Source of the DNA: a virus
Lineage: Duplodnaviria > Caudoviricetes
IMG/VR virus record: IMGVR_UViG_3300024346_000004
Strand: one strand, 5' to 3'
Length of the DNA: 64,000 bases
The translations under genes were made by a program, and so were the position numbers. The stretch's first letter is position 1; each line of letters opens with the position of its first letter. The notes beneath the pieces were generated by a model, which did no database searches, was not told the origin of the DNA, and was given only the letters and a program-made list of their open reading frames with translations. Of the stretch, positions 20,642 through 63,000 are shown piece after piece.

Positions 20642-20692
20642 TATTTCTTGATATATTATATTTTGTTCTTTAAACATTTTACACCTTCCTTT
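20642..20692 (-). promoter_or_regulatory. Two tandem copies of the AGGA-N18-GAA promoter motif
   Basis: AAAGGA(20692-20687)-N18-GAACAA and AAAGAA(20671-20666)-N18-GAAATA. Confidence 0.6.
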
Positions 20693-23600
20693 AATGTAAC
20701 ACTGATGGATAAACTGCAACAGCCAGAGTATCAGCACCAGTTTCTTTTACTGGATAGGAGAATGTTCTTAATTTAGTTAATGAAGCGTTATATACTTCTA
20801 TTTGACTTAGTAATGTAGCATCTTTACCTGCTACAAATATTTCACCAGCTTTGTTAATACATATAGCATTAGGTGATGACATTATGATGACTTCACTTTG
20901 CAATAAACCACTTGTATTATATTTTCTTAGTAATCCGTTAGAAGTTGTTACATAAATGTTTCCACTAATATCTACACTTACTGATTGAGCATTAGTACAT
21001 GTAAAATGAGTGACATATACTCCGCTACTATTAAATTTGATAATTTTGTTATTATTTTCTGCTATATAAATATTATTATTTATATCCAGGCAAATACTCG
21101 TGACATTGTACATAAGAACATTTGTATTATATTCATTTATCCAAGTAGTTACAGTATTGGTACTATTTAGTTTATTTATATTATAAACAAACACAGATGA
21201 TACAAATGTTTTATAGACTACATATTTATTATTACTACTGTCTAAGGCTATTGATGTTGGTATAGAATTTGTATTCAACGAAGAAATATTAATTTCATTT
21301 GTAATTGTAATATTTGTTTCTAGAATCCAAGCATTATTAGCTTTGTCATATGATCTTTGTCTTAAATTCCTATTTGATGATACTTCCCAAATTTTTCCAT
21401 TTGAATCTACATCAAAAGCATCATATGTATTAATATTATTTACTGAAAGATTTGAAATTGTATCGCCTATGGAATTCTTTAGAACAATACCTGTCGGCTG
21501 AATCATGTTGGTTGGGCCAGAGACAAAATTCAAATACATTAATTGTTCATTAGAAACAATAGTAGTATCTTGTGGAGTTTCAACTACAGTAGATTCACAA
21601 TTAGCACTAGGATTTTTACCATCATAAGGCTTGAACTGTGTAACAAATCTCATATTTCTAATAAGACTAGGATTTTGCCCAGATGGAACATATACAGCCA
21701 AACCTATTTTAGTAGATTTTGCGATATTATTTTTACTTAGGTTTGATCTACCTAAAGATATAGCATTAGTTGATAATGTTGGTAAATCATTCCAAGCTGA
21801 AGGATCTGAATTATATACAGCTAATCCATCTGCTAAATTCCATGTAATATTAGAAGATCCAATAGTATAATAAGGAACTGTAGATGCTGGTTGTGGTAAA
21901 GATATTAAATAATCTTTATTTTCACTAGCTATTCCTGCGATTACTTTAGTTACTGCTCCAGGGAATATTTCAGTATTTTCGTTAAAATCTGTAGCTCTAA
22001 CCCATCTACCGTCTGAACCAGTGCCAGCGAATTCTACAGAATATATACCATTAGCAGAACTTGTTGATTGATTCTTTACTAATATTCTATCCCCAGCTAA
22101 TACTTCTAATCCATCAACTGTTATTGGAGCTCCGCCATATAAAGTAGCTATATTTGTGGTTGTGGCTAATCTACAATCATTAAATCTTACTGTATTAGGT
22201 TGTTTAGCCCAATAAATATTTGTGGAATTTAATACAGGTGAAGATGAACTTAACCATATACCATACCAGCTATTCCCATCTACAATTCCACCAGTTACGC
22301 TTACTCTCAAATAGGGATTTAATTCAGAAGTAGAATTCATCTTAGAATGTCTTACTAACTTAACACTTCTAGAATAACCTAAAGTATATAATCCATTTTG
22401 AGTAGCAGATGTTTGATCTTTAACAATAACAGTAATACCATCTGCTAATGCAACACCATTTAAAGTACCTGATGCTAATGCTGATAAGTCTATATTTGAT
22501 CCAACAGAAATAGTATCTGCATTTGGAAAATTAGAGCTCCATGTATTAGAATTCATAAAATACACATCAGAAGATCCAACTGTTGTAGAAGCAGAATCAA
22601 AATAAGATTCCCATACAGTATCTAAACCTGTTGCACTATTTAACACAGATACAGTTAATGGTTCAATTGAGAATTGATCTGCTGTAGCATTTCCTGAAGT
22701 TACTCTCGAATAAATAGGTTTTTTAGCAGCTCTTACAAATGTTCCTAAATAACGGTCAGCAGCTGTTGTTTGTCCACGAAGTAAAACTCTATTTGAAGTT
22801 GATGATGTTAAATCTACACCATCAATAGTATCTGGTACCGCATTTGTAAGATTAGAAATATTAGTAGCAGTAACAGCATTTGCTTGATAATAATACTTTA
22901 ATGAACTTACAATTCTAAAATATTTATCTACAGTATTAAAAGTATAAGAAGTAGCAGGTGGTAGATGCAATTCATATTCTTGATTTAAAGTACTACCATC
23001 ATTAACTAATACTTTACCATAAGCAAATAATTCATTATCAGCATCAAAATATGGTGCTCTTGCTAATGTAAAATTATTTGTAGCTTTATATAAATAAATT
23101 CCATTTTGAGATGGATTTGTTATTTGGTTCTTTACTAATATTACATCATTAGCTGCTAAGAACGTACCATCTATAAAGTTTGGAGGTGATGCAAGATTGA
23201 TATTTTGTGCAGATCCATTTGTAGCTAATCTGGCAGTAAAATCAGTTAATAATGATTCATCTAAGAAATCTATTCCAGACGTTCCTAATGTTGTAGAAGC
23301 TGGATCATAATAAGATCTGAATGTTTTTGCGCTTGGTAATGTAGTAGAAACATATATTGGCGATATTCCTACTGACTGATATGTTGTGTCTCTTGTTAAT
23401 GTGTAAGAATATTTAGAAATAGCAAAATCATAAATACCATTACCAGGAACATTTGAAGCCAAGTTAGCTGTTAATAAAACAGTATCAAAATTAGCCAGAT
23501 TATAAGAATCTACAATCATAGGCATAGATGTTAATGATGCGACAGATGTATTATATCTAACTGTTACTGTTTGAGCTACATGATATGATTCTGGAATAAA

Positions 23601-62947: not shown

Positions 62948-62970
62948 TTAAAAAAATCTCCTATATATAA

Positions 62971-63000
62971 TATTTCTACATAGTATATCAATAATCTTTT
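62971..63000 (-). promoter_or_regulatory. AAGA-N18-GAA promoter
   Basis: AAAAGA-N18-GAAATA before 62947. Confidence 0.6.

Follow-up and report, generated by a model that had tools for sequence, protein, structure and literature searches.

Which sigma factor reads the promoters of an uncultured freshwater jumbo phage? The question is raised by a stretch of 64,000 nucleotides (nt) from the Caudoviricetes record IMGVR_UViG_3300024346_000004, here called in its entirety the window, in which the bipartite motif AGGA-N18-GAA recurs upstream of genes. A sequence-only reading had regarded it as a sigma-H-like promoter at the head of the structural operons. As far as the DNA itself can tell, (A/T)AGG(A/T)-N17-AGAA(A/T) represents a genuine promoter class in the freshwater jumbo-phage family to which the window belongs, with AGGA as the putative -35 and GAA(A/T) as the putative -10 box. 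The motif has a distinctive placement and a specific spacing, is conserved at orthologous sites and co-occurs with the gene for a SigH-like sigma factor. We consider it probable that this phage-encoded protein, acting on the host core RNA polymerase, reads the motif as a middle/late promoter class.

Placement and spacing of the motif

All eleven copies listed by the sequence-only reading are present as strings in the DNA, each with its position and strand. Their number is unremarkable: AGGA-N18-GAA occurs 11 times in the window against 8.7 +/- 2.8 expected in shuffled sequence, so an enrichment in total count is not borne out, and AGGW-N17-AGAA occurs 9 times against 5.8 +/- 2.2. Unlike the total count, the upstream position on the sense strand and the fixed N18 spacing, both claimed from the outset, are non-random in the window as well as in its relatives. 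Five of the eight copies of AGGA-N18-GAA[AT] lie within 120 nt upstream of starts in sense orientation, zones that cover 4.1% of strand space, and in the same zones other spacings from 10 to 27 mostly yield none. The pattern A[AG]GA-N18-GAAWAW is found nine times, six times at most 85 nt from a same-strand start. The consensus AGG[AT]-N17-AGAA, which is equivalent to AGGA-N18-GAA, was learnt from relatives alone, without the window; in the window six of its nine matches lie no more than 100 nt ahead of a start on the same strand, although such zones make up 3.4% of the space (binomial p=1.3e-7), and spacings of 14-16 and 18-20 give 0-2 upstream matches.

The relatives, G001-G005, are IMG/VR contigs of 169-358 kb found via the MCM/AAA protein (48-57% identity). 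Whole-genome motif analysis covered G001, G002 (IMG/VR 3300032245_001860), G003 and G004 and included a blind search that enumerated every 4-mer/spacer/4-mer dyad in upstream regions (about 67,000 dyads seen in G001). The top dyad in G001 is AGGA-N17-AGAA (p=2.9e-8): a 2.1% share of the sequence holds 7 of its 17 genome-wide copies. TAGG-18-AGAA ranks next. AAGG-18-AGAA and AGGA-17-AGAA are the top two in G003, and the leading dyads of G004 (AGGT-19-AATA, AAGG-21-ATAA, AAGG-18-AGAA and AAGG-19-GAAA) represent one motif in different registers. The list for G002 is dominated by a GGGG..CCCC hairpin repeat, but the targeted count is equally clear there: 8 of 29 copies of AGG[AT]-N17-AGAA are upstream, compared with 8/25 in G001, 6/23 in G003 and 11/31 in G004 (p=7e-6 to 4e-10). 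The spacing peak is at exactly N17 in all four genomes, while the other spacings from 13 to 22, when pooled, place 2-5% of copies upstream, which equals the share of sequence examined. A flanking bias (A after AGG, A before GAA, no C) is seen in the upstream copies alone.

Five distant jumbo relatives served as controls; their AAA proteins are 33-36% identical, and one of the genomes is 95% complete. In G006 and G009, the two in which the motif was counted genome-wide, it is at background (1/42 and 0/10 upstream/total, respectively). The blind search returned the classical TTGACA-N17-TATA as top dyad in both, and this validates the method. The motif is thus confined to genomes with the SigH-like sigma gene (G001-G004 versus G006 and G009). 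Two further procedures were discarded: an expectation-maximization weight matrix that started from the consensus degenerated into an A/T pattern of low information content (lambda 0.85), and a histogram of distances to the next start codon was too noisy, with internal in-frame ATGs being counted.

Conservation of individual sites

Six sites with canonical AGGA and GAA boxes are classed as strong (20692, 28003, 35337, 42898, 42908 and 53341; Table 1). The close strains L001-L008 have intergenic DNA too similar to that of the window to be informative on conservation. At site 35337, all 11 relatives with a 48-57% identical AAA protein feature AAAGG(A/T/G)-N18 and an A/T-rich GAAATA-like box amid surrounding DNA that cannot be aligned; in strain L007 both boxes are intact and the spacer bears three changes. 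The 519-aa (amino acid) gene behind this site is the head of an eight-gene operon. Site 53341 likewise has an altered spacer and two intact boxes in G001 and L007. Both of these sites reside within coding DNA, and even there the boxes are kept. Upstream of phoH, the orthologues in G001, G002 and G004 show AGG(T/A/G)-N17-(A/G)GAA in the equivalent position between unrelated flanks. Of the divergent pair, site 42898 has counterparts of the form AGGT-N17-[AT]GAA upstream of the orthologues in G001 and G004. Its partner 42908, preceding the first gene of the 504/809/444/LamG operon, is unchanged in strains L001 and L007, and an AGAATAT box is found upstream of a 28% identical homologue in L009. 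Homologues of the 504-aa protein number just four, and IMG/VR contains no relatives of it. At site 20692, a weaker copy (AAAGAA-N18-GAAATA) is nested 18 nt downstream, and the orthologues exhibit AGGT or AGGA with a variable -10 box.

Table 1. Motif copies and other features; positions refer to the window unless another contig is named, and promoter assignments are predictions
Feature	Position	Strand	Context
Putative promoter AAAGGA-N18-GAACAA (site 20692)	20663..20692	-	5' of 153-aa gene (20172-20633)
Putative promoter ATAGGA-N18-GAATAT (site 28003)	27974..28003	-	5' of phoH (26558-27940)
Putative promoter ACAGGA-N18-GAAATA (site 35337)	35337..35366	+	within 3' end of MCM/AAA gene; 5' of 519-aa gene (35400)
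Putative promoter AAAGGA-N18-GAAAAA (site 42898)	42869..42898	-	divergent from site 42908; 72 nt 5' of ATG of 278-aa Ig-like gene (41963-42799)
Putative promoter ACAGGA-N18-GAATAT (site 42908)	42908..42937	+	GAA box ends 36 nt 5' of ATG (42971) of 504-aa gene
Putative promoter CAAGGA-N18-GAAAAA (site 53341)	53341..53370	+	within 3' end of 916-aa fibre-like gene; 84 nt 5' of 1148-aa gene (53452)
Variant putative promoter AAAGGA-N18-GGATAT (site 31069)	31040..31069	-	-10 box GGAT; 5' of 76-aa gene (30783-31013)
Variant putative promoter AGAAGA-N18-GAAAAA (site 26566)	26537..26566	-	-35 box AAGA; 5' of 1935-aa gene (20691-26498); overlaps hairpin
Variant putative promoter AAAAGA-N18-GAAATA (site 63000)	62971..63000	-	-35 box AAGA; 5' of 285-aa gene (62090-62947)
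Candidate variant AAAAGA-N18-GAATAT (site 50636)	50636..50665	+	-35 box AAGA; 5' of 916-aa fibre-like gene (50697)
N19 copy AGAGGA..GAAAAT (site 12268)	12238..12268	-	within 3' end of gyrA; next start 229 nt away
Sigma-70-type TTGACA-N17-TATATT	41101..41129	+	intergenic gap before transglycosylase gene; 11/12 matches
TGTA[CT]AA(T)	33990-33997	+	
TGTA[CT]AA(T)	40017-40024	+	
TGTA[CT]AA(T)	38375	+	
TGTA[CT]AA(T)	42944	+	
TGTA[CT]AA(T)	26523	-	
gyrA and gyrB	12220-19445	-	both intein-bearing; LAGLIDADG homing endonuclease domain in GyrA intein
dnaX-to-ECF-sigma block	L126 (ENA ERZ937436, 337-kb contig) 8927-14395		

The remaining copies deviate from the canonical boxes. Site 31069, in front of a four-gene operon of small open reading frames (ORFs) headed by the 76-aa gene, corresponds to AGG(T/A)-N17-ATAA in G002 and G004 and to AGGT-N18-AGAA in G001. 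For site 26566, the orthologous place in G001 carries canonical AGGA-N17-AGAA, and for site 63000 AAGA and GTAGAAATATTA are retained in G001 with about half of the spacer changed; these G001 sites make both AAGA-type copies credible and support their assignment as promoters. In G002 and G004, the 1935-aa gene follows directly after phoH and the motif is missing. Site 50636 is weakly supported as a promoter: it is unchanged in close strains, which is uninformative, and G001 has just AGAT-N17-AGAA at another distance. The N19 copy at 12268, which had been placed before a tail operon, is probably not a promoter because 229 nt separate it from the next start and because N19 is not an enriched spacing.

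Among the eleven copies in the window, AGGA forms the -35 box in seven, and the -10 box reads GAAT at three sites, GAAA at five, GAAC at one and GGAT at one. In the strict sites the GAA box ends 32-36 nt (four sites) or 72-84 nt (two sites) from the start codon, and the predicted leaders of about 20-75 nt would contain ordinary Shine-Dalgarno sequences. The relatives also present a different geometry: at 6 of their 48 strict sites the distance between the end of the GAA box and the ATG is 9-10 nt. At this distance the start site is predicted to fall on the ATG, and this subset of promoters would therefore yield leaderless mRNAs. No such case is found in the window. Sites of the same kind were noted in L012, L014, L015, L017 and L019, and one gene of this class in a relative begins MWYK.

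A SigH-like sigma factor in the phage family

Each of the relatives G001-G005 encodes at least two proteins of the sigma-70 family, and the genes for two of them are situated about 4 kb apart. The shorter protein (183-188 aa) is a generic sigma factor resembling the extracytoplasmic function (ECF) type. For the longer one (231-265 aa), SigH models are the best match in 5/5 genomes, with 100-117 bits over positions 8-194 of 198. TIGR02859 spore_sigH is matched with 104-115 bits (E from 1e-30 to 4e-33, confirmed by genome search), as compared to 54-57 bits for the generic sigma-70/ECF superfamily and at most 31-39 bits for SigF/SigK. When a ten-member profile of the phage sigma was compared with the PDB, the best match was 3mzy_A, 'RNA polymerase sigma-H factor' (E=2e-18), while other sigma factors reached 1e-4 or weaker. 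The alignment with 3mzy reveals a conserved region 4.2 helix (DNAltRIRKK in the phage profile and DNTiqRIRKK in the structure).

The SigH-like sigma shows 67-87% identity between relatives, and the AAA proteins of these phages share about 50% with that of the window. The sigma has 187 metagenomic homologues and carries the JGI name 'sporulation-specific sigma factor'. Neither the cultured Bacillus phages nor the distant jumbo relatives (0/5) possess a counterpart. Among 185,579 species genomes the sole match (70% identity) is L171 (VEQB01000117.1, 6,960 bp), a contig binned in a metagenome-assembled genome (MAG) named 'Bacteroidetes bacterium'. L171 is probably a phage fragment and offers at most a weak hint at the host.

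The gene order around the sigma gene is conserved in G001-G004 and L126: dnaX, the SigH-like sigma gene, purA (adenylosuccinate synthase), two genes of unknown function and the ECF-like sigma gene. This block sits downstream of genes for ribonucleotide reductase and dUTPase, and the SigH-like sigma gene, a member of a long replication operon, is not preceded by a conserved AGGA motif. Next to the sigma gene, purA comes with TTGCAA-17-TAGAAT in G002 and G003. Autoregulation of the sigma gene was considered and rejected: a lone AGGA-N17-AGAA before dnaX in G002 is located in coding DNA and is not kept in G001, G003 and G004.

Candidate readers of the motif

We propose that the SigH-like sigma is made along with the early/middle replication genes and loads on the host core polymerase, which would then open the AGGA/GAA promoters of virion-type and other middle/late operons. 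Targets in the window would be the 504/809/444/LamG operon, the 278-aa Ig-like gene, the 1148-aa fibre-like gene, the 519-aa operon, phoH and the 153-aa gene, and probably also the 1935-aa gene, the small-ORF operon and the 285-aa gene. Middle/late expression of these genes is predicted; fibre-like, Ig-like and head-protease-domain proteins among the targets hint at it through their functions, but phoH is a target as well.

Several results weigh against this proposal or narrow it. The 64-kb window itself does not contain the sigma gene. A putative phage-encoded reader, which the sequence-only reading had offered as one option, is present in all five close relatives; for the phage of the window we infer it. 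The scores of the sigma lie far under the SigH equivalog cut-off of 294.8 bits, and the protein is therefore SigH-like rather than SigH. The ECF-like sigma is found in every relative that has the SigH-like one, and with both always found together their co-occurrence with the motif cannot assign it to either. The T of GAAT is not fixed: at the relatives' sites GAA is invariant and is followed by A in 54% and by T in 25% of cases. When the blind dyad search was restricted to the window, AGGA-17-AGAA ranked fifth (3/8, p=1.5e-4) and fell short of significance. With only 18 upstream regions this search is underpowered, and its antisense control, a mirror image of the sense result, is uninformative. 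Finally, most downstream genes have no functional match, and in the relatives 4 of 20 downstream proteins are labelled, among them a protein with a head-maturation-protease domain, an Ig-like fibre and a structural/minor-tail protein. That the motif heads structural operons is accordingly correct in part: about 4 of 10 downstream units in the window are recognizably of virion type, the rest are not, and phoH is among the best-conserved targets.

It would be very hard to maintain that the motif is no promoter at all and instead reflects either a chance AT- and purine-rich upstream pattern, composed of Shine-Dalgarno AGGA and A-rich leaders, or an element acting at the RNA level or in translation. 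AGGA does double as ribosome-binding core, total counts are at shuffle expectation and the search in the window alone was not significant. On the other hand, a peak at a single spacing recurs in five independent genomes above background at all other spacings, and comparable control genomes are without the motif. In the strict window sites the start codon is 55-105 nt away from AGGA (32-84 nt and the 25-nt motif), a distance too great for a ribosome-binding site. Spacer and flanks drift while the boxes are kept, also within coding DNA. Placement, spacing and orthologous conservation thus agree in pointing at a promoter class, as the sequence-only reading had supposed.

If the sites are promoters, the phage family offers a second potential reader. 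The ECF-like sigma, or some other phage factor that is needed in addition, might recognize AGGA/GAA, leaving another promoter set, such as the TGTAYAAT class described below, to the SigH-like sigma. Both sigma factors occur side by side in 5/5 relatives, and the second family-specific motif, TGTA[CT]AA(T), requires a reader as well. ECF promoters typically have boxes of the AAC and CGT types. These bear no likeness to AGGA and GAAW, whereas the phage motif agrees with the published boxes and spacer of SigH promoters (PMC12456013), and the SigH-like sigma retains the SigH-type region 4.2 helix. We thus regard a role of the ECF-like protein at these sites as unlikely. Recognition by a sigma-H of the host, through which virion genes would be coupled to the stationary-phase/sporulation programme, appears more doubtful still. 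In its favour, boxes and spacing coincide with those of SigH promoters from Firmicutes, and the phage has Shine-Dalgarno sites and at least one TTGACA-17-TATATT promoter. Against it stand the phage family's own, highly conserved SigH-like sigma, which is not found in cultured Bacillus phages, the absence of the motif from related jumbo phages without that sigma, the origin of the phages from freshwater metagenomes and the fact that the sole match in the genome collection is a 7-kb contig in a Bacteroidetes MAG. Nothing beyond the resemblance of the motif speaks for a tie to host sigma-H or to sporulation, and the phage sigma, the control genomes and the freshwater origin all lower the likelihood of this suggestion.

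Other promoter classes and genomic setting

The window is AT-rich (about 32% GC). Apart from the intein-bearing gyrase genes, it encodes phoH, a DnaJ-domain protein, a RecD/exonuclease V-type helicase, the MCM/AAA ATPase and a lytic transglycosylase, and a large share of the remainder is taken up by long LamG/Ig-like fibre-type genes. Comparison with cultured phages gave no nucleotide matches and next to no matches to structural proteins. Proteins identical to those of the window are present on numerous freshwater metagenome contigs, the longest seen being a 208,902-bp ENA contig.

Sigma-70-type promoters had been suggested for the transglycosylase gene and for gyrBA. The element before the transglycosylase gene is a plausible promoter of this contrasting class. 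For gyrBA, the candidate TTGTAA-17-TAGAAT is no better than chance because such matches abound in AT-rich DNA; sigma-70-like matches occur in the window at shuffle frequency (86 versus 93 expected).

A second upstream motif, TGTA[CT]AA(T), is enriched in G001-G004 (20/68 in G001, p=8e-18) and not in G006 and G009. It mostly ends 6-8 nt 5' of the start codon, as in front of positions 34006 and 40033 of the window. It looks like an extended -10-type class giving leaderless mRNAs or, alternatively, a palindromic TGTACA operator. Further elements were noted. The 278-aa Ig-like gene has an TTTCTTCGAAG element in its 5' leader (window ~42820-42840, minus strand); this element is conserved in L009, where the neighbouring homologue is 28% identical, and in G001 near 56 kb. 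Between gyrA and the gene for an 831-aa appendage protein, 210 nt (window 12010-12219) are without a called ORF; in G001, conservation of this stretch nearly equals that of the 831-aa gene, and it could represent an unannotated start, a leader or a small gene. G002 contains an abundant TGGGGT-N14-ACCCCA hairpin repeat upstream of genes, typically with ATAA about 15 nt after it.

Comparison with known systems and implications

SigH promoters of Sporomusa, B. subtilis and C. difficile consist of a -35 box AGGA and a -10 box GAAT separated by a spacer of 17-18 nt (PMC12456013). The likeness to this consensus claimed by the sequence-only reading holds for AGGA, for GAA and for the spacer. The phage sites share the AGGA-N18-GAA arrangement with the promoters of Bacillota SigH (sigma-H, Spo0H), and SigH provides the best family and structure matches of the phage sigma; the -10 box differs in being GAA(A>T) instead of GAAT. 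The sigma itself differs from Bacillota SigH in being phage-encoded, longer and low-scoring, and the setting is a lytic-type freshwater jumbo phage in which a link to sporulation is not supported.

In phage SPO1, small phage sigma factors (gp28 for middle and gp33/gp34 for late genes) displace the primary sigma on the host core polymerase and direct it to two-box phage promoters (PMC13401047). The phage family described here resembles this cascade in combining a phage-encoded sigma with a distinct promoter consensus on phage genes; the control genomes G006 and G009, which have no SigH-like sigma, lack the motif as well. In SPO1, middle promoters have AGGAGA at -35 and late promoters GATATT at -10, both loosely reminiscent of the boxes found here. 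Differences from SPO1 concern the SigH-like lineage of the sigma, the other boxes and the lack of a match in cultured Bacillus phages, and no auxiliary factor such as gp27 or gp33 has been identified for the family. Copies of Bacillota developmental sigma factors of the sigF/sigG type are known from the Bacillus phages SP10 (g120), Goe3 (g157) and Eldridge (g168/169); g120 of SP10 is dispensable, and these proteins presumably act on sporulation genes of the host (PMC9429907). The sigma described here is likewise a phage version of a Bacillota developmental lineage, but it is SigH-like, and matching promoters are spread across the phage's own genome. Jumbo phages without a polymerase of their own often encode sigma factors (PMC7824862). 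As with T4 gp55 and the sigma factors of group 2 jumbo phages, the SigH-like protein would steer the host polymerase to late genes. T4 late promoters comprise just a -10-like TATAAATA box. In contrast, the motif described here has two boxes and a fixed spacer. Retargeting of the host polymerase by phage sigma factors such as T4 gp55 is textbook knowledge. In the literature searched, there is no account of a phage sigma that is SigH-like and has promoters to match. With retargeting phage sigmas and sigF/sigG copies known and this pairing not found, the SigH-like sigma and its promoters are a new example of a known strategy, in which a phage sigma redirects the host polymerase.

It is conceivable, albeit rather speculative, that the SigH-like sigma and the AGGA/GAA promoters form a self-contained transcription system, borne by a widespread freshwater family and used partly for leaderless mRNAs, with the 'sporulation' sigma lineage being phage-borne and the hosts possibly not Bacillota, or, alternatively, that the host does belong to the Bacillota and that phage and host sigma-H read each other's promoters, coupling infection to the stationary-phase programme. 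If the SigH-like sigma is the reader of the motif, an uncharacterized lineage of phage sigma factors would be paired with a concrete DNA target, and the pair could possibly serve as an orthogonal expression module. Recognition of the SigH type would then not be limited to sporulation circuits in Bacillota. Promoter placement in the relatives hints at frequent leaderless mRNAs, a trait relevant to the identity of the hosts. For a large family of uncultured jumbo phages, the motif would provide a transcription map, showing sets of operons that are activated jointly and the factor that activates them.

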